Source: an uncultured Acidobacteriota bacterium
GTDB taxonomy: Bacteria > Acidobacteriota > Vicinamibacteria > Fen-336
Length of the DNA stretch: 64,000 bases
Assembly (NCBI GenBank): GCA_963744315.1
Contig: CAVUTB010000008.1
Location: 65,349-129,348 of the forward strand
Direction of reading: 5' to 3'
The position numbers and the translations under genes were made by a program. The notes beneath the pieces were generated by a model. The model saw only the letters and a program-made list of their open reading frames with translations. It searched no databases and had not been told where the DNA came from. Below are positions 6,358 to 27,990 of this stretch, piece after piece. Numbering within the stretch: position 1 is the stretch's first letter; every line of letters starts with the position of its first letter.

Positions 6358-8975
6358 TCACCGGAACGGCGACGTCAGGTACAGGTCGTTGACCTGACGG
6401 GTGTAGCTGTAGGCGTAGGACTCGCCGTCCGGAGTCACCAGGATGCGGTACTGGCCCTGCAGGCCCGAGGGGGCCGCGCGGCCGAGCCGGTTCCAGGGCC
6501 GGGTTCGTCCGCTCGTGACGTCGACGTACTCGACTCGGGGCGGGGTCTTTTCGTAGCGCGCCACCAGCAGCTCGCGGCCGTTCGGGGTCCAGCAGATCGG
6601 GACGTCGGTTTCAACCAGGCTCGGGACGGCCTGGGGATTTCCACCGGCCAGGGGATAGAGAGCGGGGAGGCCGTCTGCACCCAGGGCCACGACTCGCCGT
6701 CCGTCCGGAGAGACCGGCCGGCCGATCCGGGGGAGACTGACGTCGTCCGACGTGACCGCCCGGGGCGGGCCCGCGTCGAGGTCCTGCACGAACACGCGCT
6801 CCGCGTCGTGGTCGTCGATCCCCGAGAACACGACCTTGCGGCCGCTCGGGTCGAAGACGGCTCGCGTGTAACGAACGACCGGCCCAGGCTCGAGCGTGCG
6901 TGCCTCGCCGGCGCCCGTCGGAACGACGATGAGCTGCTGCGGCGTCGTGTGAATCAGCACCGCCAGCACGGAGCGGCCGTCCGGGGAGATGGCTTGCCCG
7001 TCCCCTCTCCCAGCCACACGGGAGGAGAACCGTCCGTCTTCTGGAGGTAGAAGGCATAGCGCGGCCCCCCGCCCTGGCCGGTGTCCGTGCCGAGGATCTG
7101 CGTCCCGTCGTCGGAGAGGTCGGCGAGGAACGAGAGGTCGGCGGCAGGCAGCTCCGGCTTCCTCCCCGGCGCCGCGGGCACGCGCCCGGATCTCGGTCCA
7201 AACGGTCCACTGAGCGCCAAGGATCTGGCCGCGCCTCGACACGTCGAATAGCTGGAAGGCGCCCGCTCCTTCAGCGAGCAGGCGCTCACGACCCGACAGC
7301 GACACGGCATGGACCTGGCGCGGCGCTCCACTCGACCGGGTTGCGGTGAACCAGATCTCGTTTCCGTTCGGGGACCAGCCCAGCCCGTTGAGGCCGGTGA
7401 ACCCGGAGGCGAGGGCGCGCCGCTGTCCGTCGAGGCCGACGACCGAGACTCCGCCTCTCCATCGGCGGCGACGCGGGTGCTCGATGAAGCCCACCTGTTT
7501 CCCGCTCGGGGAGACACGGAGGTCGCTCATCCAGATCGGAGGGCTGGGCTCGTAGAGGACGTGGCCGATCGGATACTCGAGCCGGCAACGATCACCCACG
7601 TTGTGAATCACCGCGAGATCCTTGCCGTCGGGCGACCAGTCGGCGTCCAGCACGCCCTCGAGGACCTCGCGCGGTGTTCCCCCCGCCATCGGTGCGCGAG
7701 CCAGGGTGCCTTCGAACACGACCAGGTAGCGACCTGCGGCCGCATGAGCAGCGCGAGCTCTTCACGGGAAGAGATCGCGAGCGTCAAGGCGTTCTCGAGT
7801 CCCAGGGGCCGCGTCCCCCCTGGTGGTCGCCCGAGTGGAGAACAGCTCCATCGGGCTCTCACCGCCCGGGTGGGCGCTGTAGAGGATCGTGTCCCCATCC
7901 GGTGCGAAGTGTGCCGACTCGATACGACCGAGGCGGAACGTCAGGCGCTCGTAGGCTGCCGGCGTCGGAGCAGGCACCGTTGCGCGACCCAACCAGAGGC
8001 CGAGGCCGGCTGCGACGCCGGCCAGCGCCAGCGCCGCGGCCACGGATTTCCAAACCCTCGAGCTCCGCCCAGCTGGCCGAGGCTCGCCGGCCACGATCCT
8101 GACTTCCGCGGTCGCCCCTTCGAGTGCGAAGGCCAGGTCGCGCGCGGACTGGAAGCGATCCTCGGGAGCTTTCTCGAGGCAGCGGCGCACGACGCGTAGC
8201 AGGGCGGCCGCAAGCGCCGGCTTCGTGCCGACCGCTTCGGTCGGGTCTTCTCGCAGGATCGCGCTCAGGGTGTCGGCGACGGTCGTGCCCTTGAAGGCCC
8301 GCTTGCCGGTCAGCATCTCGTAGAGCACGGTCCCAAAGGAGAAGATGTCCGAGCGGTGGTCCGTCGCGCAGCCCCGGACTTGCTCGGGCGACATGTAGCC
8401 GACCGTGCCGATCATCGTGCCGGGGCTCGTGCCGGTGTGGGAGAGGGTCTCGACGTCGGTACCGGCCGTTTCTTCGCCCGGCCGCCCGAGCTTCGCGATG
8501 CCGAAGTCGAGGATCTTGACGAGCCCGTCCCGGGTCAGGAACAGGTTCTCGGGCTTGAGGTCGCGGTGAACGATGCCCCTCTCGTGTGCCGCCGCGAGGC
8601 CGCGCGCGATCTGGACCGCGTAGTCGACGGCCTGCGCACGCCGAGCGCGCCCGTCGCCATGCGGTCGCGGAGCGTCTCGCCCTGCAGCAGCTCCGAGACG
8701 ATGTAGGGCGAGCCGTCGTGCTGTCCGGTGTCGTAGACGGCGACGATGTTGGGGTGGTTGAGCGTGCCGGCGGCCTTGGCCTCGTGCTCGAAGCGTCGCA
8801 GCCGCTCGACGTCCTGCGCGAGGTCGGCGTGCACCACCTTGAGCGCCACCTCGCGCGACAGCCGCTCGTCCCGCGCGCGGTAGACCTGCCCCATGCCGCC
8901 CTCGCCGAGGAGCGCCAGCGACCTCGTACGGCCCGACGCGAGCGCCCGGGCCGAGGCTCGGCGCGCTCCCTCACG
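6358..8975 (-). CDS. Ser/Thr protein kinase with TM helix and TolB/WD40-like beta-propellers, frameshifted
   Basis: Kinase subdomain motifs at 8200-8900; repeated WSPDG/SPSGK/FDPSG/SPDGR motifs in the C-terminal half. Confidence 0.9.
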
Positions 8976-9615
8976 CCACGGTTCCCGTCTCGGTCGTGCT
9001 GTTGCCGGCCGACGTCCGAAACACGAGCACGGCCGGTCCGATGCAGATCTCGTCGCCGTCCGCGAGCTCCGCGGCCATGGTCACCGGCTGGCCGCGCAAG
9101 AAGGTTCCGTTCTTGCTGCCCAGATCCTCGAGGATGGCTCTCGCCCCTTCGACCACCACGCGGGCGTGGTGCCGCGACACGCGCGCGAGGTCGATCACGA
9201 TGCGGGCGTCCGAGGCGCGGCCGAGCAGATTTTCGCCTTCGACGAGCGGGATGTGGCGCTCGGCCCACACGAGGCGGCACCGGGCCGGCGCTCCGCTGGC
9301 CGCGGCGTCGGCGACCGCTTCCCCGCAGAAGGCGTAGCCGAAGCGGTGGATCGTCCGCAGCAGGAGGGGGGCTTTCGCGTCGTCACCCATCGCGGACCGG
9401 ACTTCGGCCGCCAGCCGGGCCAGGCTCGAATCTTCGACGAAGCTGTCGGGCCAGAGCCGCTCGTGAATCTCCTGCTTGGTGAGGGCACGCGGCCGCTCCG
9501 ACAGCAGCAACTCGAGGAATTGGAAGGCCTTCGGAGAGAGGGCCTGCAAGGCGCCGTCCCGTCGGAGCTCCCTCGAGTCGCCGTCGAACAGGCACCGACC
9601 GAAGCGCACGCGCAC
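8971..9615 (-). CDS. Winged-helix (OmpR/CadC-type) DNA-binding domain plus FHA domain regulator (EmbR-like architecture)
   Basis: LSPKAFQFLELL...IHERLWPDSFVEDSSL...LRTIHRFGYAF; FHA motifs GR, VSRHHA, DLGSKNGT, LADGDEI. Confidence 0.92.
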   Translation of the reverse strand: MRVRFGRCLFDGDSRELRRDGALQALSPKAFQFLELLLSERPRALTKQEIHERLWPDSFVEDSSLARLAAEVRSAMGDDAKAPLLLRTIHRFGYAFCGEAVADAAASGAPARCRLVWAERHIPLVEGENLLGRASDARIVIDLARVSRHHARVVVEGARAILEDLGSKNGTFLRGQPVTMAAELADGDEICIGPAVLVFRTSAGNSTTETGTVA

Positions 9616-9772
9616 GGCCGAACCTCCGCGGGAAATCAGAGTTGCCGAAGAACTCGCGAATGACTTGGACGGCCGCCGGTGGGATTATGCACCCACTGCA
9701 ACCGGCCACAGGGAATCGAGCAGGCCGTTCTCGCGTGGTTCTGGCGCGGCGGATCGACAAACGGAGGGTGCG

Positions 9773-10304
9773 ATGAAGAACCTGATGCTCGCGGCAGGCT
9801 TCGCGGCGGCCGCACTGGCGATGGGCGGGGACACCTTCGCCTGCGGCGACAAGCTCGTGATCGTGGGTCGCGGCATGCGCCCCAAGCGCGTCAAGGGCAG
9901 CGTGCCCGCATCGATCCTGGTCTTCGCGGACCCGAAGGGCTCGATGCCGGCAGCCCTCGAGGAGGGAAACCTGCGCAAGGACCTCGAGAAGGCCGGGCAC
10001 CGCGTACGCAGCGTCGGCGTCCCGCGAGGAGCTCGACAGGGCCCTCGACACCGGCAGCTACGACCTCGTCTTCACCGACATCAAGACGGCGCCGGCGATC
10101 GAGACTGAAGCGAAGGCCGCATCTTCGAAGCCCACGGTCCTGCCGACGCTCTTCAATCCCACGGACGCCGACCTGGCCGCCGCGACGAAGGAGTACCACT
10201 GCGTGGTGAAGGCGCCTGGAAGCCAGAAGGACTACCTGGCCGTGGTCAACGAGGCCTTGGCGATCCGGGCCAAGGAGCAGAAAGCCGAGAAGAAGAAGCA
10301 GTAA
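9773..10304 (+). CDS. Secreted hypothetical protein with a receiver (CheY)-like fold, one frameshift near 10020
   Basis: Signal peptide MKNLMLAAGFAAAALAMGGDTFA-CGDK; reconstructed ILVFAD...LEKAGHRVRSVGSREELDRALDTGSYDLVFTDI...CVVKAP; SD GGAGG; TAA 10302-10304. Confidence 0.7.
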
Positions 10305-19351: not shown

Positions 19352-20780
19352 ATGGACAGCCCAGCCGGCAAGCGCAGCTTCGCCTCGCTCTCTCTCTCGC
19401 AGGCGACGCTCGGGAGCCTCGAGGCGAAGGGGTACGAGTCCCCGACGCCCGTCCAGGAGGAGTCGATCCCGAAGGCGCTCGCCGGCAAGGACCTGGTGGT
19501 CCAGTCGCGCACCGGCACCGGCAAGACCGCAGCCTTCGGGATCCCGATCGTCGAGAAGGTGGACGCGCAGCGCGACGGCGTGCAGGCGGTGGTGCTCGCG
19601 CCGACGCGCGAGCTCGCGATCCAGGTGGCGCAGGAGATCACGGAGCTCGGCCGCGGCCGGGGCGTGAAGGTGCAGTCGGTCTACGGCGGCGACTCGATGG
19701 AGCGGCAGATCGAGGGCATCCGGGCCGGCGCGCACGTGATCGCCGGCACGCCCGGCCGCGTGCTCGACCACCTGCGGCGCGGGACGCTCGACTTCTCGGG
19801 CGTGCACTTCCTCGTGCTCGACGAAGCCGACCGCATGCTCGACATGGGCTTCGCGGTCGAGATGGGCCAGATCATGGAGTTCGTGCCCGCCGGCGCGCCA
19901 GACGATGCTGTTCTCGGCCACGGTGCCGATCGGCATCCGCGGGCTGATCTACCACTACATGGCCGAGCCCGAGTGGGTGCTGCTCTCCGAGGACCAGATC
20001 TACGTCAAGGAGGTCGAGCACGTCTACTGCCTGACGCCCGCGCCTGCACAAGGAGGCGACGCTCTATCGCCTGCTCGAGTACGAGAACCCGACCTCCTCG
20101 ATGATCTTCTGCAACACGCGCGAGGAGACGCGGCTGGTCTCGACCTTCCTGCGCAACAAGGGCATGGCGGTGGCGATGCTGTCCTCCGACCTGCCGCAGA
20201 AGAAGCGCGAGCAGGTGATGGCGGCTTCCGCGAGGGCGAGATCCGCCACCTGGTCACGACCGACGTGGCCTCGCGCGGGATCGACATCGACGACCTGTCG
20301 CACGTCTTCATCTTCTCGACGCCCGACTCGCCCGAGCAGTACATCCACCGCGCGGGCCGCACCGGACGCGTGGGGAAGAGCGGCCGTGCGGTCAGCCTGA
20401 TCTCGGCGATGGACCTGATGAACTTCAACCGGCTGGTCAAGCGCTACCACGTCGAGGTCAAGGAGATCGCGGTGCCGACCGACGAGGAGGTGCAGGAGCG
20501 CAAGGCCTCGCGCATCGTCGACCTGCTCAGCGAGGCCGGCAAGCGGCTGCCGCTCGAGGACTTCCTCGACCTCGGCCCGGCGGCGCGCGCGATCGCGGCG
20601 CACGAGCTTCGCGATAGGATCGTGGCGCTGCTGCTGCGCGGGCACCTGCAGGAGCAGGTCAAGGCGGCGCCCGACGAGGAGGTCGAAGCGCCGGCCGTGT
20701 CGGAGCGAGGCGGGCCTTCGGGCCCGCCGCATCGGCGCGGTCCCGGCGGTGGCGGCCGAAGGCGGGGCAGGCGCCGCTGA
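19352..20780 (+). CDS. DEAD-box RNA helicase (DeaD/CshA-like), frameshifted
   Basis: Q motif PTPVQ, SRTGTGKT, PTRELA, TPGR, LDEAD, FSAT, TDVASRGID, HRAGRTGR. Confidence 0.93.
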
Positions 20781-20797: not shown

Positions 20798-21235
20798 ATG
20801 ACACACGGATACACCGAAGACCTGGCGAGCCGGATGGGCGCGTACCAGGACCGGCTGGAAGAGGCAGCGAAGCGGGGGCCCGCGAACCTGGCCGCCGCGT
20901 TCAACGATCCGCCGCCCGGGCTCGCGTGCCACGAGATCGACACCGAGATGAAGGTGCTGCGCGCGAACGACGCCGACCTGCGCCTGCTCGGCTACACGCG
21001 CGCGGAGTTCGTGGGAAGGCGCGTGCTCGACTTCATCGTGATGACGGAGACGGCCCAGCGTGCGATCGGAAGGAAGCTGACGGGGGAGCTGGCGCTCAAG
21101 CCCTTCGTCCGCACCTTCCGGCGCAAGGACGGCACCGCCGTCGCGCTCGTGCTGCTGGACCGCTACCTGAAGGACGCCTCCGGGCAGGTGATCGGCCTGC
21201 GGACCGTGCTCGCGGAGACCGACGGCGCCAGCTGA
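20798..21235 (+). CDS. Stand-alone PAS-domain protein
   Basis: EIDTEMKVLRANDADLRLLGYTRAEFVGRRVLDF...FRRKDGT...LKDASGQVIGLRTV. Confidence 0.8.
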   Translation: MTHGYTEDLASRMGAYQDRLEEAAKRGPANLAAAFNDPPPGLACHEIDTEMKVLRANDADLRLLGYTRAEFVGRRVLDFIVMTETAQRAIGRKLTGELALKPFVRTFRRKDGTAVALVLLDRYLKDASGQVIGLRTVLAETDGAS

Positions 21236-21290: not shown

Positions 21291-21507
21291 GTGAAGCTGG
21301 GACTGGCTCTTCTCGTCTTCGGTGTCGGCCCGCTCGTCGCGATCGTCGTCCTGGCGGCGGTCGGCCTCTGGCCGGATCCGAACCCGAACCCGGTCGGTCC
21401 CGGCCTGCTCGCCTGCATGACGTTCTGGCCCGGGCTGATCTGCCTGGTCGTGGGAGCGATCCGCGTCGCGAACCAGGACCGCGGCGGCCGGGCCTCCGCG
21501 CGGCTAG
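21291..21507 (+). CDS. Small two-TM membrane protein
   Basis: Two hydrophobic helices around a PDPNPNPVGPG loop; stop inferred at TAG 21505-21507 after a 1-nt shift. Confidence 0.55.
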
Positions 21508-22550
21508 CGCGCCACCGCCGTGACGCGGCGGCGGAGCCAGCGCTCGAAGAACCAGTTGGCGAGGCGGTAGCCCTCGCCGGCGCGCGCCAGGTAGCCGAGC
21601 ATCGAGAGCCCGTAGAGCGGCGCGTCGAGGTCCTCCTCCGGGCGGCCGAGCGTCCGCGCGAGGCCGCTGCGCGTGCCGCTGCCCTCGCGCGCCACCTCGC
21701 TGAGCGCGTCGCGCTCGACCTGCTCGAGCGTGTTGAAGTCGACGGCGAAGTAGTTGGCCACCATCTCGTCGGCCGCGAGCTGGTCGAGCGTCACCGCGAG
21801 GTCGCGGCTCTCGAACAGGCGGCTCGCGATCAGCTGCACCAGGAACGGGTGGCAGGCGGCGCGCTCGAGCATCGTCTCGACGTCGGCCGGCGGGAAGCCG
21901 CCGCGCGCGAGCAGCGCGCGCCCCTCCTCGGGCATGAGCGGCGTCAGGTAGGTGGGAGGGATGAAGCCCTGCAGGAACGGCGAGGTCGGCAGCGTGGACT
22001 GCTCGTCGACGCGAGCGAGCAGCCGCGTGCCGGTGATCACGGTGCGCACCTCGCTGCCGCGCGAGATCACGCGCCTGAGCCTGGCCAGCACCGAGGCGTC
22101 GGTACGGCCCACCACCAGCAGCTCCTCGGCCTCGTCCACGAGCAGCAGCAGCCGCCAGCCGCTGCGGACCGTGCGGCGCACCAGGCTCGCGAGCATGTCC
22201 GCGACCGGCAGGCTCTCCAGGTCCTCGACCAGCACGTCGGTCGCGCGCCGGAAGGGCTCCGAGTCCTCGACGCTCGCGAGCAGCGTCTCCGCCAGCCCGC
22301 GCGCGTCGCCGCTGCCCTGCAGGTCCCAGTAGAGCGGGACGAACGGCGTGTCGCGGCTCTGCTGCACGCGCAGCTCGACTTCCTTCAGCAGGCTGGTCTT
22401 GCCGAGCCGCCTGCCGCCGAGCACCCAGAGCGAGTGGCGCTCGCCCTCGAGCACCTCGCGCACGAGCCCGTCGCGGCCGAAGAAGTCCTCGCCCCTGACC
22501 CAGCTGCCGGCGATGAAAGGATTGCGTCGCGGTGCGGCGGCCTGCGTCAT
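21504..22550 (-). CDS. Soluble STAND/AAA-type P-loop ATPase with C-terminal winged-helix-like region
   Basis: RNPFIAGSWVRGEDFFGRD, Walker A GGRRLGKTS, YWDLQG, Walker B LLLLVDEAEEL, CHPFLVQ; intact ORF. Confidence 0.88.
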   Translation of the reverse strand: MTQAAAPRRNPFIAGSWVRGEDFFGRDGLVREVLEGERHSLWVLGGRRLGKTSLLKEVELRVQQSRDTPFVPLYWDLQGSGDARGLAETLLASVEDSEPFRRATDVLVEDLESLPVADMLASLVRRTVRSGWRLLLLVDEAEELLVVGRTDASVLARLRRVISRGSEVRTVITGTRLLARVDEQSTLPTSPFLQGFIPPTYLTPLMPEEGRALLARGGFPPADVETMLERAACHPFLVQLIASRLFESRDLAVTLDQLAADEMVANYFAVDFNTLEQVERDALSEVAREGSGTRSGLARTLGRPEEDLDAPLYGLSMLGYLARAGEGYRLANWFFERWLRRRVTAVAR

Positions 22551-22556
22551 GACCGC

Positions 22557-24975
22557 CTAGTCTGCCATAGCCGGCCGCTCGAGGGCGGAAGGCTCGGGCT
22601 CGAGCTGCGTGTCCTCCACGGTCAGCGCCGCGTCGCGCGCGGCGTCCACGTCCTCGAGCCGCACGCTGCTGCGGCCCTGCTCGAGCATGCGGTTGAGCGC
22701 GTGCACGCACAGCTTCTGGACCAGGTACGGCCGCAGCTGCGACAGCTCGAGCACGCGCTCGACGGCCTCGTTCCTCCAGCGGAAGATGCCCGCGACGGGC
22801 TCGCGCACGAGCGCCTCCGCCTCCTCGCGCGAGAAGGCCTTGAGCTCCACCTCGTCGAAGAAGTTGTACCAGGGGCTGACCTCGCTCTTCCAGCGCCGCC
22901 TGATGCCGACACCGCTCATCACCGCCACCAGGTTCTCCGAGAAGCTCTTCATGAAGATCCCGCGCAGGCGCTGGTTGACGCTCTCCGAGTACTCGTTGAG
23001 CACGTCCACCTCGTCGATCAGCAGCGCGAGCTTCACCTTGCGCGGCGTGCGGGTCTTGAGCTCGCGATCACGCGCTGCAGGTCGTGGCTGAAGTCGCGCG
23101 CGTCGTAGCCCTTGACGTCGGGCCCGAAGCGGAGCTGCTCGCGCGTCGCGGGCTTGAGCTCGAGGCTGTCGACGGCCTCGGCGATCAGCGCGTGGAAGAA
23201 GCCCTGCTCGGGAACGCCCTGCAGGTCGACGAACACGGGGAAGAAGCGCCACTCGCCGCCGTCGTCGTCCGCGAGCACGCGCTTCAGGTGATGGAGGAAG
23301 GTGGTCTTGCCGATGCGGCGCTCGCCCGTGATCATCAGGCTGTTGCGGTGCAGCGTGCTCAGCATGCGCGCCGTGAGCTTCTCGCGCCCGTAGAACATGT
23401 CGTCGTCGAGCACGGGCGCGCCCGCGATGTAGGGGTTGAAGCGGCGGCGCCGCGCGCGGCTGCGCCTCAGCATCTGCCCCGCGAAGCCGAGCCCGATCAC
23501 GCTCAGGGCCCCGGCCACGCGCCGCCGGGATGAAGTAGCGGCGTCTCGTGGAAGCGCAGCCGCCGCTCGACCTTGAAGGGCACCGAGTACGACAGCCCTC
23601 CGGTGTCGATCGCCGTCACGACGATCGAGTTCTCGCCGGGCTGGAGCGCGAGCTGCTGGGCGAAGTGGACCATGCGCGCGGGCTGGAGCGGGGTGCTCGC
23701 GGGCAGGAACTCCTCGACCGGCTGCTCGCCCACGCGGAACTCGACCTTCTGCACGCCCTGGTCGTCGCTCGCCGCGCCCTGCAGCGACAGCGTGGGGGTG
23801 TCGAGCACGGGCCCGCCCGGGTCGAAGAGCGCGAGGAGCGGCGGCTGGTTGGGCAGCCAGCGCGCGACGATCGCCTCGCCGGTGCGCCGCTCCGCCTCGG
23901 CCAGCTGCTCGCGCGCGTGCGGGTGGTTGGCGTCGAGCTGCAGCAGGGGCTGCAGCGCCACCTGCGCTTCGGGGAAGCGGCCCGCGTTCAGGAGCTCCTG
24001 GGCGCGCGCCGCGCGCCGGTCGATCTCGGCGCGCTGCTCCCGCTGCAGCCGCAGCCGCTCGAGCGCCTGGCGTGCGCGCGCCAGCAGGTCCTTGGCCTCG
24101 AGGTTCGTGGGGTCGGCCGCGGCGTCGCTCAGCGGAGCGAGCGCGGCCTCGTACTGCCCGCCGTCGAAGAGCGCCTTGCCTTCCGCCAGCTTCTGCTGGC
24201 GCGCGGCGCGCGAGGTCGAAGCCAGGATGCGCTCCTCGGCCTGGCGGCGCCCCTCGAGCGCGCGCGTGTTCCTGGGCGAGAGGTCGAGCGCTCCGTCGAA
24301 CGCGAGCTTGGCCTCGTTGTTCTTGCCTTCCTCGAGCAGGCGGTCGCCGTCGGCCAGGCGCTGCTCCAGCCGCTGCGCGCGAGCCGCCTGGTCCTTCGCC
24401 TCGGCCTGCGCCGTGCGCTGGCGCTGCTGCTCCTGCTGGACCGCCCGCAGCGTGTCGGCGTCCAGGCTCTTGGCGAGCGCCTCGGCCTTCGCCAGCTCGG
24501 GCAGCGACTCGTCCCAGGCGCCCTTCTTGCCGAGCTCCTGCGCGCGCTCGAGGAGTCGCATCGCCTCGCCTTTCGCCCGCCGGGCGCGGCTCGCGGCCTC
24601 CGCGGCTTGCGCCGTGCCGCGGCGCTTCACGAGGTCGTCCATCAGCTCCGTCTTGCGGATGGCGCCCCGCTGCTCCTCGAGGTTGAAGGCCTCGGTGGCG
24701 CCGACGTAGTCCTGCTGCTCGAGCAGGCAGACGCCGAGGTAGTAGTGCGGCAGGTACTCCACGAACTGCAGCCCGTAGGTCTGGACGTTCGTGCCCGAGG
24801 CGGGCCGCAGGCGCAGCGCCTCCTTCACGTTCTTGATGCAGTCGGCCCAGCGCTGGTCGGGGATGTCGTGGTCCCGGGCCTGCAGGTAGTAGTCGTACCA
24901 CTCGCGCGCCGCCCAGGCCGTGCCCGCGAGAGCCGCGGCGAACAGCACGAGCGTGATCCGGGAGCCGGCGCGCAC
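22557..24975 (-). CDS. Membrane-spanning protein: signal peptide, TPR repeats, Ig-like domain, TM helix, cytoplasmic STAND/AAA-type ATPase (two frameshifts near 23530 and 23060)
   Basis: N-terminal signal MRAGSRITLVLFAAALAGTAWA; TPR motifs (YLPHYYLGVCLL, AKLAFDGALDLSP); Ig-like GAASDDQGVQKVEF...LQPGENSIVVTAID; TM VAGALSVIGLGFAG then RRRRFNPYIAGAPV, GERRIGKTT, LLIDEVD. Confidence 0.8.
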
Positions 24976-24978
24976 GAG

Positions 24979-26044
24979 CTACTTCTCGAACATCGCGGCG
25001 ATGTAGGCCCCTCGCGCGGTCGCGGTGAACGGGTCGGTGGCCACGCGGACCTCGGCCACCTCGATCGGGAACGGGCGCGCGCGCAAGCGTGCGCTCGAAC
25101 AGCTCCTTGAAGCCCTTCGGCTTGGCGGTGCCGCCCGCCAGCACGATCGGCAGCGGCCGATCGGTCTTGGGCAGCTTCTCGGCGCGCGAGATCGCGCGCC
25201 GCAGCGTGTCGACGAGCGACTCCACGAGGTCCTCGTAGTAGATGTGGATCGCCTTCTCGAGCTTGTCCTTGGGCTGGCGCGAGAGCTCGAAGCCCTCCTC
25301 CTTGATCACCTTCACGCGCGTGGCGTGCTCGCCGACCGCGTCGCCGACCGAGCGGTCGATGAAGTCGCCGGCCTTCGGCAGCGAGACCATGATCGAGGGG
25401 ATCGAGAGGAACGCCAGCGTCGCATTGCACATGCCGCCGCCGCAGGAGATGCCGATGCCCGTGAAGTTGTGCTGCTCGAGCTCGGCGAAGATCACCGCCA
25501 GGCCCTCGTTGATCGCCATCGCCTTGTAGCCGAGCGCGGTGAAGTGCTGGCGCAGGCTCGCCTCGTGGTAGGTGAGCGACGACTCGCGCCCGGGCGCCGC
25601 GGCCGGCACCGAGAACGAGAGCACCTCGTTCGACGAGCGCGGCTTCGGCACCAGGCTCTGCAGGATCGCCTCCAGCACCGGCCAGGCCTGCTTCTCCTTC
25701 GGGTTCAGCAGGCCGTCGGCCATCGGCCGGCGCGCCTCGGCGTTGAACATGTTCGCGAAGCGCTCGGTGGCCGAGCCGAAGATCACGATCTCGTCGCCGT
25801 CGCGGTAGTAGTGGATGTCGCTCTGCTGCTGGATCGTGCGCTCGGTGACGGGCGAGTAGGGGACGGGGATGAAGGCGTTGAGCTGCGCCTGGCAGGCCAC
25901 CTCCTTGCCGCCCCGCTTCGAGACCACGACCTTGCTGGTCCCGACGTCGATCCCGACCGGGTGCGAGCCGCCCTTGACCAGGTCCTCGATCTTGTCCGCG
26001 GACTCCTCCGGTGCCTTCCAGAGGTGGTCCTTGTTCTCCGCCAT
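24979..26044 (-). CDS. Actin-fold ATPase, volactin/MamK-like (frameshift near 25075)
   Basis: Phosphate-1 GIDVGTSK, connect-1 INEGLA, phosphate-2 GISCGGGMCN, adenosine LAGGTA, connect-2 DPFTATARGA; corrected end AAMFEK* at 24979. Confidence 0.85.
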
Positions 26045-26049
26045 TGGCT

Positions 26050-27427
26050 TTATCCTCCGCTTGCGGCGCGCGCGTCCTGCGCCGCTGCTTTCTCGGCTGT
26101 CTCAGCGTCCTTGGTCAGCTCGGCCAGCCATCGATCGTAGGTCCTGACCCGCTCCATGCGCACGGCCTCGACACCTTGTCCCGAAGCCGCGGCCTCGGAG
26201 GCGAGCGCCGCCTGCGCCGCGATCACGCCCGGCCAGGGCTCGCCCAGCACCGACAGGAAGCGCTCGTCGTACGAGAAGCCGAAGAGCTGCACCGCCGGCG
26301 AGGCCACCCGGTACTGGTCGGGCAGCGAGTACGCGGCGAACGGGAAGCCGCGCGCCCAGTCGAGGTGGTGGCCGATCAGGTGCTTCCTCGGGTTCACGCT
26401 CGCGAGCCCGTGGGTCACGCACATCTCGGGCGCGAGCGACCACTTGTGGCGCAGGTAGTCGGTCAGGCTGCGGCCCGCCTCGAGCTGCGCGCGCGTGATC
26501 GGCAGCGCCGCGCCGCCCTCCCAGCGCGTCTCGTACGAGATCCCGATCGTCGCGCCGTTGAGGTTCAGGTAGAGGCGGTCGCCCGCGCCCCAGACCGACA
26601 GCCCGGCGTGGTTCGCCTTGTGCCTTCTCCTCGACCACGCGGTAGACGCGGCCGAAGCGGTCGATCAGGTAGTGGTAGACCTGGTTGCGCCGCAGGTAGC
26701 GCAGCAGGTCCTGGCTCGAGTCGCGCAGCTTCTCGTTGAACGACTCCTCGAGCGGCCAGATGTCGCTCTCCGAGGTGTGGAAGACGATGCCGACCGGCCG
26801 CTCGAGCACCTCGGCGCCCATCCCGCCGTCCTTCGTGAACGCGCGGTAGCGGCGCGCCTCGCCGCGCACGGCCCAGGTGGTGTCGATGCGCAGGCCGTTG
26901 CTGTAGAGCTCGAAAGCGGCGCCCGAGTCGACGAGCCAGATCCGGTCGGGCGTGCCGCCGCGCGGCGCGTCGAGCGCGGCCTGCGCGGTCGGCCGCGGCC
27001 GCGGTGTCGCCGCCGTGGCTGTGGCTTGCTTCGCCTCGGGGCCGTGCACGCGCGGGTAGCTCGCGAGCGCGAGGCCGGCGGCCGCCATCAACAGCATCGC
27101 CGCGACGTTGACGGTCCGCCGGGCGCGCCGCGGCAGCGGAGGACGGCTGCGTCGCGGCGGGTCGAGCGCGCCCCAGGGGTTGCGCGAGAAGAGCGGACGC
27201 GCCTCCTCGACGCCCGTCAGCCGGTACGCCACCCAGCGCAGCGGCGCGCCGGGAAGCGCCTGGAGGCGCTCGTCGAGCGTCTCGAAGCGGTCGAGCGAGC
27301 GCCGGATGTAGCGCAGCTTCTCGACCGGGTCGCGGATCGTCCGCAACTCGGCCTCGAGGGCCGCGAGCGGCCGGCGTCCGAAGCGAGCCACGCGGGCTGG
27401 CTTGGCTTTCGGGGCGTTCCTGGCCAC
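26050..27427 (-). CDS. Membrane-anchored N-acetylmuramoyl-L-alanine amidase (Amidase_2/PGRP-like), frameshift near 26620
   Basis: IVFHTSE, YHYLIDRFGRVYRVVEE..KANHAG.S.W, IGISYE, ITRAQ, VTHG, HLD; single TM helix after an N-terminal helical domain. Confidence 0.78.
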
Positions 27428-27502
27428 CCGGGCCGCGGACGGCCTCGTCGCGACGGCGCTACGCGGTGGTACAGCTCGCGGCAAACCCCTCTCCGAACGG
27501 GA

Positions 27503-27532
27503 ATTATACGGTTCTGCCGGCGGGACCCACAA
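27503..27532 (-). promoter_or_regulatory. Sigma70-type promoter of the amidase-actin-ATPase operon
   Basis: TTGTGG-N18-TATAAT on the minus strand (perfect -10 at 27503-27508 in very GC-rich DNA). Confidence 0.6.
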
Positions 27533-27603: not shown

Positions 27604-27990
27604 ATGACTGCGGGAGTCGGGGCGGGATCGGGACGCGAGGGTCGCCGGGGTCAAAGGACGCCGGTCGACCTGACGGCCGTCGTCGGCGGACGTCAGAAGA
27701 AGAGCGCGCGCGCCCTCGACCTGAGCCTGGTCGGCTGCCTGCTGCGGACTCCGGCCGCGCTCGCGCGCGGCGCGGTGCTCGACTTGACGCTCGAGCTTCC
27801 GGACGGACCGCTGCGCACCAAGGGGCGCGTGGCCGAAGCGTCGATCGACGGCGAGGCGCCTCCCGGCCCGCAGAGCTTCCTCGCCGGCGTCGAGTTCTTG
27901 GCACTCGCCGCGAGCGACGAGACGCGCCTGCGGTCCTTCCTGGACGCCGAGATCAAACGGAGGAGGGTTGAGAACTCGCCCCCTGCGTGA
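27604..27990 (+). CDS. PilZ-domain protein (c-di-GMP receptor)
   Basis: RRGQR (RxxxR) and DLSLVG (DxSxxG) motifs; GVEF strand. Confidence 0.85.
   Translation: MTAGVGAGSGREGRRGQRTPVDLTAVVGGRQKKSARALDLSLVGCLLRTPAALARGAVLDLTLELPDGPLRTKGRVAEASIDGEAPPGPQSFLAGVEFLALAASDETRLRSFLDAEIKRRRVENSPPA

Follow-up and report, generated by a model that had tools for sequence, protein, structure and literature searches.

In bacteria, the actin homologs MreB and FtsA guide cell-wall synthases, and MreB is read by the cytoplasmic tail of RodZ. In E. coli, the FtsEX-EnvC-AmiA/AmiB system ties a cytoplasmic ATPase across the membrane to an elongated periplasmic helical module, an amidase, and an actin homolog. We know of no described actin family that is dedicated to a hydrolase of the wall. 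FtsA is read by the cytoplasmic tail of the bitopic protein FtsN (PMC7613929). The volactin of Haloferax forms dynamic filaments and has a role in cell-shape transitions; these filaments cross the cytoplasm and contact the membrane with their tips, and salactin functions in DNA partitioning (PMC10869688). The volactin study deals with Haloferax only. Here, we describe a bacterial operon of four genes, which encode a bitopic peptidoglycan amidase, a Volactin-family actin, a transmembrane (TM) ATPase with tetratricopeptide repeats (TPRs), and a soluble ATPase. It is located in a stretch of 64,000 nt, called the window in the following, from an uncultured Acidobacteriota bacterium from soil (contig CAVUTB010000008.1, positions 65,349-129,348 of the forward strand, assembly GCA_963744315.1; GTDB lineage Bacteria; Acidobacteriota; Vicinamibacteria; Fen-336). 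The window has a GC content of 72%.

In its layout, the amidase-actin pair of this operon resembles MreB-RodZ and FtsA-FtsN. In each case, a cytoplasmic actin polymer (for the operon a predicted one) is combined with a single-pass protein that has a short conserved N-terminal tail and a periplasmic wall-directed domain. However, the systems have no sequence relationship, the operon actin is neither MreB nor FtsA, and the binding of tail and actin is only predicted for the operon. Furthermore, the periplasmic domain of the operon protein is the hydrolase itself, whereas those of the known systems regulate synthases. The likeness to FtsEX-EnvC is one of analogous logic only: that system uses an ABC ATPase, a coiled coil with a LytM domain, and an Amidase_3 enzyme, in contrast to ATPases with nucleotide-binding, helical, and winged-helix domains (NBD-HD-WHD), TPRs, and an Amidase_2 enzyme in the operon. 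The organization of wall enzymes by actin homologs is thus known. New are the parts themselves, the proposed direct coupling of an actin to a hydrolase, the conserved peptide that resembles a docking site, and the TPR-ATPase that spans the membrane. An earlier inspection of the sequence (the original prediction) had proposed that the combination is undescribed, and indeed no description of bacterial Volactin-family proteins, of a Volactin-amidase coupling, or of the four-gene combination was found in the literature.

The comparison of genomes showed that the conserved unit is a two-gene module of amidase and actin, which crosses phyla. With moderate confidence, we read the operon as an accessory cytoskeleton-to-cell-wall module, in which actin filaments would position the amidase and the order-specific ATPase pair would act as a regulator. 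A wider proposal is made more tentatively, and we regard it as nearly evenly balanced. Bacterial Volactin actins may constitute a widespread undescribed cytoskeleton, at least in the Acidobacteriota and the Desulfobacterota, that is linked to the wall via a bitopic amidase with the docking motif IxDPVx(R/K)L(R/K)(F/Y)LR. In one order, a TPR-ATPase and its soluble paralog may have been added as an NBD-HD-WHD switch that reads the periplasm.

An amidase profile was compared with 1.84 billion representative proteins and yielded 261 clusters at E <= 1e-30. Distant genomic contexts were taken from the contigs of eight amidase representatives, which make up seven distinct cases. A Volactin gene lies directly beside the amidase gene, in either order, in six of these seven cases, on contigs with GC contents of 52-66%. 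The six include the Bryobacterales bacterium F-183 (L075; L-numbers denote loci of relatives) and metagenome-assembled genomes (MAGs) of Desulfobacterales (L081). To judge from its strain-style record name and its complete genome, F-183 appears to be a cultured isolate; a search of the literature for this strain retrieved nothing relevant. The ATPases were found in none of the seven distant loci, and for this reason the ATPase pair is read as a presumably later, order-specific addition.

For a closer comparison, species-representative genomes were scanned with the actin, and the 69 loci obtained were compared by tblastn and clustering of open reading frames (ORFs). The order amidase, actin, TPR-ATPase, soluble ATPase is kept in about 45 loci of Vicinamibacteria, down to an actin identity of 63%. 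The four-gene system of the original prediction is thus co-conserved according to the gene-neighbourhood comparison, but the deeper unit is the amidase-actin pair, which occurs in other phyla without the ATPases. Class-wide counts for 151 genomes, which are uncorrected for phylogeny and whose signal within the class comes from a small number of clades, gave 66 genomes with the actin and 66 with the amidase; both are present in 64, only the actin in two, only the amidase in two, and neither in 83. When both genes are present in a genome, they are on the same contig, side by side. Among the four single-gene exceptions are a fragment at a contig end and a remnant that contains a stop codon. Support that is partly independent comes from the recurrence of the pair across phyla. 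Protein homolog searches that started from the actin or the soluble ATPase had only close Vicinamibacteria relatives among the matches listed.

The arrangement of the pair is not uniform. In the 'Marinacidobacterales' and related families (45-51% actin identity), two tandem actins precede the amidase, and the ATPases are missing. The tandem paralogs of L047-L060 (e.g. L047:6422-7492 and 7989-9011) are about 47-51% identical to the window actin, and an ECF sigma factor gene is often nearby. The pair is therefore found in both orders, as amidase-actin and as actin-actin-amidase. In another lineage (L033-L041), the order amidase-actin is kept, and a PF00144 beta-lactamase/penicillin-binding-protein-like gene starts 7 nt past the actin stop codon. 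This gene (e.g. L036:9066-10352) occupies the place of the TPR-ATPase and adds a further cell-wall theme. The ATPase pair of this lineage is located upstream on the opposite strand, 4-7 kb away. Of the 51 genomes in the order to which the window belongs, 48 carry the soluble ATPase, as a single copy about 3.5 kb from the actin, and 48 likewise carry the actin. Elsewhere in the class, homologs of the soluble ATPase are only distant (36-41% identity), longer, and unlinked. As a separate observation, a full four-gene operon with an actin 77% identical to those of Vicinamibacteria was found on a contig labelled 'uncultured Hyphomicrobium sp.' (L016), which is probably mis-binned.

Several observations weigh against an accessory cytoskeleton-to-cell-wall module of four genes. 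An amidase without an adjacent actin is encoded on a contig with a GC content of 36% (L074), and Volactin genes without a nearby amidase occur in MAGs of Desulfurivibrionaceae and other Deltaproteobacteria (L056-58), in a Bacteriovoracaceae MAG (L062), and in archaea. Three of the four genes are frameshifted in this assembly. The zinc ligands of the amidase are assigned from invariant alignment columns, and that its N-terminal motif docks to the actin is purely what we infer. The remaining points concern the ATPases. The pair is detachable from the operon (L036, L037, L041), it is absent from every other lineage that carries the amidase-actin pair, and the genes flanking the operon are also syntenic within the Vicinamibacteria. 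Therefore, the four-gene order may partly reflect inheritance rather than selection. These three points would be expected if only the amidase-actin pair were a functional unit and the ATPase pair, in some lineages together with a gene for an 86-aa protein, were an independent neighbour module, since the detached ATPases are 4-7 kb off on the other strand while amidase and actin stay together, and the linkage could be inherited. We regard this alternative as unlikely. The spacing of the genes is tight in about 40 loci, the detached ATPase pair is still within a few kilobases of the actin and amidase genes, and its presence tracks that of the actin in the order, with 48 of 51 genomes each.

The four genes are located on the minus strand of the window and have the same direction. 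Their extents were set from a frame plot of the GC content at third codon positions (GC3) and from three-frame translations: the amidase gene spans 27484-26050, the actin gene 26044-24979, the TPR-TM-ATPase gene 24975-22557, and the soluble ATPase gene 22550-21504. The junctions were read directly from the sequence. The amidase stop codon TAA (26052-26050) is followed after 5 nt by the ATG of the actin (26044), the actin stop codon TAG (24981-24979) after 3 nt by the GTG of the TPR-ATPase (24975), and the TPR-ATPase stop codon TAG (22559-22557) after 6 nt by the ATG of the soluble ATPase (22550). A GGAGGA sequence is present upstream of the actin start codon. Across the relatives, the intergenic gaps are 0-6 nt; in about 40 loci, 0-3 nt separate the actin stop codon from the start of the TPR-ATPase gene, and the soluble ATPase gene follows this gene at a distance of 6-7 nt. 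This spacing implies co-transcription and probably also translational coupling, and thus the TPR-ATPase and the soluble ATPase are, on the evidence of gene spacing, probably co-translated with the actin. We read the four genes as one operon. In this respect, the original prediction, which had described four co-oriented genes with gaps of about 5, 3, and 6 nt as a single unit, agrees with the directly read junctions and with the tight spacing and co-conservation across the relatives.

A promoter-like element had also been predicted upstream of the operon, and the sequence is indeed present. It spans 27503-27532 on the minus strand and consists of TTGTGG (27532-27527), a spacer of 18 nt, and TATAAT (27508-27503). 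TATAAT hexamers occur only three times in the 64-kb window when both strands are counted. The TATAAT together with a downstream GGAGAGG...TTG start is kept in 21 of 37 orthologous loci. A generic promoter scan did not list the operon region, because the -35 motif TTGTGG agrees with the consensus at only three of six positions. No terminator-like sites were found on the coding strand of the operon in a scan of the region.

As assembled, the last gene, encoding the soluble ATPase, is the only intact ORF of the operon, and the other three genes are broken by five single-base indels. In an alignment with five relatives, the window has a surplus base near each of the positions 26622, 25086, 23542, and 23519 and lacks a base near 23064. 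The original prediction had anticipated indels in calling for the sequence to be polished. Five frameshifting indels inside 4 kb of coding sequence might indicate that the frameshifts are real and that the block is a decaying pseudogene cluster in this genome, but we consider this very improbable. The five indels are absent from all relatives compared, and the nearest relative (L012) has indels of its own at different sites. GC3 holds values of 0.9-1.0 in the correct frame on either side of every shift, and the broken genes contain no in-frame stops or further lesions. In addition, breaks of this kind occur in unrelated essential genes: the MreB gene elsewhere in this genome is split in two (C16:232010-232982), and the neighbouring DEAD-box helicase gene (window 19352-20780, plus strand) runs across three reading frames. 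The completeness score of the genome is 66%, although it is in only 20 contigs, which suggests that single-base indel errors occur throughout this genome. For these reasons, we attribute the sequence pattern to probable errors of long-read assembly and not to decay. The protein-level analyses were performed with intact orthologs, mainly those of L002, a Vicinamibacteria MAG with an actin identity of 92%.

The second gene of the operon (24979-26044, minus strand) encodes an actin of about 354 aa, and the additional base at about 25086 shifts its last 35 codons or so. The uninterrupted piece of 318 aa matches the Volactin family (PF25216) with 229.1 bits (E 1.2e-67), far above the cut-off of 35. 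The intact actin of L002 reaches 267.9 bits, and a six-frame search of the genome gave 236 bits. Competing actin models scored much lower, with 18.7 bits for Salactin, 17.2 for MreB_Mbl (cut-off 27), and 38.5 for MamK (cut-off 400). Assignment to MreB/Mbl was rejected, as the match is below the cut-off and covers only the C-terminal 50 residues. The actin is thus volactin-like, as had been proposed. The motifs of the actin fold (phosphate 1, connect 1, phosphate 2, adenosine, and connect 2) are conserved in the alignment A4, with invariant residues at D33/G35/T36, E180/G181, G196-G198-S200-G202-G204, G304/G305, and A343/G345. A Ser in place of the phosphate-2 Asp, which had been noticed earlier in the window protein, is common to the archaeal members and is hence a trait of the whole Volactin family.

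The volactin of H. volcanii (VolA, HVO_2015) belongs to the same Pfam family and has the same nucleotide-binding motifs. The identity of archaeal volactins to the window actin is 35-37%, and the archaeal genes lack the coupling to an amidase; haloarchaea are devoid of peptidoglycan. Instead, the archaeal volactin genes sampled adjoin genes for a DUF7139 membrane protein and a TrmB regulator, as at L063. By analogy with the archaeal protein, the bacterial actin of the operon is predicted to be filament-forming. As an additional observation, L063 and L064 (7992-9002) are archaeal contigs labelled Methanobacteriota and Halobacteriales that encode near-identical Volactin proteins, and at least one of the two labels is doubtful.

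The first gene (26050-27484, minus strand) encodes a bitopic Amidase_2 peptidoglycan amidase. Its start is probably the TTG at 27484, based on the conserved Shine-Dalgarno sequence GGAGAGG together with TTG, and one additional base is present at about 26622. The ortholog of L002 (472 aa) matches Amidase_2 (PF01510) with 49.8 bits at a cut-off of 26, whereas the frameshift cuts the match of the window protein into halves of 17.5 and 20.7 bits. A profile search against the PDB retrieved AmiD, AmpDh2/3, and AmpD. A structure of the amidase ortholog was modelled with AlphaFold2 (AF2; pLDDT 75), and the best Foldseek matches were AmpD (3e-6) and AmiD (4e-6), followed by AmpDh2, peptidoglycan recognition proteins (PGRPs), and T7 lysozyme. 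The model comprises a disordered N-terminus, a small helical domain (36-95), a TM helix (116-139), a linker, a beta-rich segment and the amidase fold (188-400), and C-terminal helices. In the window, the TM helix was located from the hydrophobic segment at about residues 125-143 (27056-27112, minus strand). It is preceded by an Arg-rich stretch, and therefore an N-in, C-out topology is predicted by the positive-inside rule. The Amidase_2 profile, the AF2 model, and the fold search all agree with the earlier proposal of a bitopic amidase with a cytoplasmic N-terminal domain and a periplasmic catalytic domain. By profile as well as by fold, the catalytic domain is most similar to AmiD, AmpDh2, and AmpDh3, but these proteins are lipoproteins or soluble and have no cytoplasmic part. 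The operon amidase adds a cytoplasmic motif, a TM helix, the beta-rich segment in front of this domain, and conserved helices that extend its C-terminus.

The residues H232, E314, H354, H369, and D371 (numbering of L002), which were placed by alignment columns, are invariant in 26 diverse members of the family and fall within the motifs where they would be expected. The spacing from the second His to the Asp differs from that in AmpD. These invariant columns are consistent with an active zinc enzyme. Alternatively, the Amidase_2 domain might mainly be a peptidoglycan-binding anchor, similar to non-catalytic PGRPs, that ties filament tips to the wall, while the filaments do other work such as the positioning of DNA or organelles or bracing, and the winged-helix ATPase serves as a cargo or DNA adaptor in the manner of ParMRC or salactin. 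Some family members are in fact named 'peptidoglycan recognition family protein' by NCBI, PGRPs are among the fold matches, and the winged helix at the end of the soluble ATPase is weakly similar to Z-alpha and helix-turn-helix domains. The course of the Haloferax volactin filaments through the cytoplasm, with only their tips at the membrane, and the role of salactin in DNA partitioning would also fit (PMC10869688). Nevertheless, we judge this alternative to be quite improbable. The positions where the zinc ligands and the catalytic Glu would be expected (H232, E314, H354, D371) do not vary, as is usual for active enzymes. Fold and profile searches gave active amidases (AmpD, AmiD, AmpDh2) as the best matches, and winged helices are a regular component of NBD-HD-WHD modules that does not require DNA binding.

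The cytoplasmic part of the amidase contains a conserved motif at residues 50-61, IRDPVEKLRYIR (27302-27337, minus strand), which is proposed to be an actin-docking peptide. When the 150 best family representatives were examined for the motif, I-x-D-P-V-x-[RK]-L-[RK]-[FY]-L-R, 113 of them had it. In these, it is located near residue 26, about 27-74 residues ahead of the first TM-like segment. The 37 motif-negative representatives are mostly short fragments without the N-terminus. In the family alignment A3, the motif is invariant or nearly so. Docking to the actin is proposed because the actin alone is consistently co-inherited with the amidases that bear this motif, and because a short conserved cytoplasmic tail is also the way in which RodZ reads MreB and FtsN reads FtsA. 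The contact of the tips of Haloferax volactin filaments with the membrane (PMC10869688) fits a capture of tips by a membrane protein.

The third gene (22557-24975, minus strand) encodes the TPR-TM-ATPase, with a signal-peptide-like N-terminus, periplasmic TPRs, a possible Ig-like domain, a TM helix at about 23468-23518, the basic sequence RRRRARRRR, and a P-loop ATPase with a Walker A motif at about 23300-23326. Three of the indels, the additional bases at about 23542 and 23519 and the missing base at about 23064, are in this gene, which is a single ORF in 21 relatives. The protein of L002 (805 aa) matches TPR_1 with 31.1 bits (cut-off 27.8) and TPR_11 with 30.2 bits (cut-off 26.8), and a PDB profile search retrieved TPR proteins at E 7e-10. 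The Ig-like domain is weakly indicated, as Big_7 reached 17.8 bits at a cut-off of 24.1 and Ig-fold chains only E values of 0.03-0.4. Thus, of the TPR/Ig receptor that had been proposed, the TPRs exceed their cut-offs while the Ig part falls short. NACHT and AAA_22 were below the cut-off for the L002 protein. The mean pairwise identity is 44-47% in the ectodomain versus 70% in the ATPase domain, and this lower conservation is compatible with, though no proof of, a sensor role such as the sensor gating that had been suggested.

The soluble ATPase, encoded by the fourth gene (21504-22550, minus strand), is intact in the window with 348 aa (347 aa in L002). Its Walker A motif is encoded at about 22392-22418, and it comprises a nucleotide-binding, a helical, and a winged-helix domain. 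It matches AAA_22 with 32-35 bits (34.6 for L002; cut-off 27). None of the curated models for STAND (signal transduction ATPases with numerous domains) proteins reached its cut-off, with 23.9 bits for nSTAND1 (27.1), 20.7 for NACHT (26.7), and 14.7 for nSTAND6 (27.7), and no NCBIfam model was over its cut-off for any of the four operon proteins. Foldseek with the AF2 model (pLDDT 80) yielded full-length matches to the archaeal proteins PABY2304 (2qen, E 2e-11, TM score 0.64) and SSO1545 (2fna), followed by NLR resistosomes, ORC/Cdc6, MalT, Dark, and TnsC. The ORC/Cdc6 AAA+ proteins match about as well as the nucleotide-binding oligomerization domains (NODs) of STAND proteins, so that the fold search does not tell the two apart. 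When PDB sequence profiles were searched with the ATPases, no match was significant; 2fna had an E value of 0.04, and Z-alpha-like winged helices were also seen. According to the structural model, the soluble ATPase is best described as an NBD-HD-WHD module of ORC/STAND grade.

The membrane and the soluble ATPase are paralogous to each other, with 29% identity (E 3e-16; hhalign 99%). Their Walker A and B residues are invariant, at G50-K51-T52-S53 and D139-E140 in the soluble and at G555-K556-T557 and D654-E655 in the membrane protein. The membrane ATPase ends after the helical domain and lacks the winged helix, and its TPRs are N-terminal, across the membrane, and predicted to be periplasmic; the soluble ATPase has no repeat domain. 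The archaeal PF01637-type ATPases (2qen, 2fna) and the NODs of NLR, MalT, Apaf-1, and Dark share the Walker motifs, the helical domain, and the winged helix with the soluble ATPase. However, no Pfam STAND or ATPase_2 model is at the cut-off for the operon ATPases, they have no fused cytoplasmic sensor repeats, and a winged helix is missing from the membrane paralog, whose TPRs are on the opposite side of the membrane. For these reasons, the ATPases were not filed as STAND members, although they would function in the manner of minimal ORC/STAND modules. Two paralogous ATPases, one of them membrane-tethered behind a TPR ectodomain, had been predicted, and the identity and TPR matches bear this out; of their assignment to STAND proteins, only the grade of the fold stood. 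As a side observation, L022 (12579-12839) and eight other loci encode a conserved 86-aa protein (MIIGVNR…HEGREYHIQCEDLG…) without a Pfam match, whose gene overlaps the stop codon of the soluble ATPase gene by 4 nt. It travels with the ATPase pair in the rearranged lineage and is absent from the window. The ATPase module may include this protein as its third component.

A mechanism can be proposed from these features for the accessory cytoskeleton-to-cell-wall module. Cytoplasmic Volactin-type filaments, or their membrane-touching tips, would bind the N-terminal peptide of the amidase, and this binding would cluster, position, or switch the periplasmic enzyme. Stem peptides would then be cut from the glycan strands only at sites set by the filaments, and the outcome would be local wall remodelling, i.e. 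a shape change, cell separation, or wall turnover. In the order of the window, the TPR-TM-ATPase and its soluble paralog might form a nucleotide-dependent hetero-oligomer at the membrane, which would couple the state of the periplasm or the wall to filament assembly or to amidase activity. If true, a cytoskeleton would directly control a peptidoglycan hydrolase rather than a synthase. How hydrolases are spatially restrained is a long-standing question in bacterial cell biology, and the module would be a compact case, with two genes and a short conserved peptide that can be mutated. The Volactin family is also extended from haloarchaea to abundant soil and sediment bacteria, and a predicted single-pass receptor with periplasmic TPRs and a soluble paralog is an unusual use of ORC/STAND-grade ATPases.

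The module is an add-on to the elongasome and the division amidases, not a replacement. The same genome encodes a true MreB (380 bits), and Amidase_3 is present in 150 of the 151 genomes of the class, with two copies in nearly all, including this one. Replacement of MreB or of the Amidase_3 division amidases by the module was rejected, as both are still present in the genome.

STAND/NLR-like ATPases are common in bacterial immunity, and NLR resistosomes were among the fold matches. The operon might thus be an anti-phage or conflict system, in which STAND-type ATPases sense invasion or envelope damage and trigger lysis by the amidase as abortive infection, with the actin as a scaffold. A comparison with PADLOC-DB v2 yielded no matches for the amidase or the actin, and the matches of the ATPases were only local to the P-loop (best E 9e-4 over about 45 residues). 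These weak sub-threshold matches, to the candidate systems PDC-S01 and PDC-S27, would be in line with defence, but none is meaningful. Defence genes are typically patchy and located in variable islands. In contrast, the operon is a single-copy locus at a fixed syntenic site amid housekeeping genes in 48 of 51 genomes of the order and is vertically inherited, and the amidase-actin pair is widespread without any STAND gene. A defence function, one of the options of the original prediction, is therefore regarded as highly unlikely.

The flanking genes encode RecG, a GNAT acetyltransferase, a PilZ protein, the DEAD-box helicase, and an ABC-F protein. The divergent PilZ gene that had been noted earlier is present at 27604-27990 on the plus strand and shares a control region of about 120 bp with the operon; its ortholog matches PilZ with 37.6 bits (cut-off 22.5). 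According to tblastn, it is at the same place in most Vicinamibacteria loci and thus is a conserved neighbour, which does not imply membership in the system. The recurrence of PilZ neighbours hints at a link of cyclic di-GMP to the Volactin-type actin family. In the Bacteriovoracaceae MAG (L062), a Volactin-like gene is followed by a PilZ-ParA/MinD fusion (8989-10167), and actin-like ORFs and an AAA ATPase are encoded upstream. On the other side of the operon, the convergent small membrane gene of the original prediction exists as an ORF (from 21291), but it is confined to the window and the closest relative. Between this ORF and the helicase gene, an ORF of 145 aa is located at 20798-21235 on the plus strand, and its product looks PAS-like by eye.

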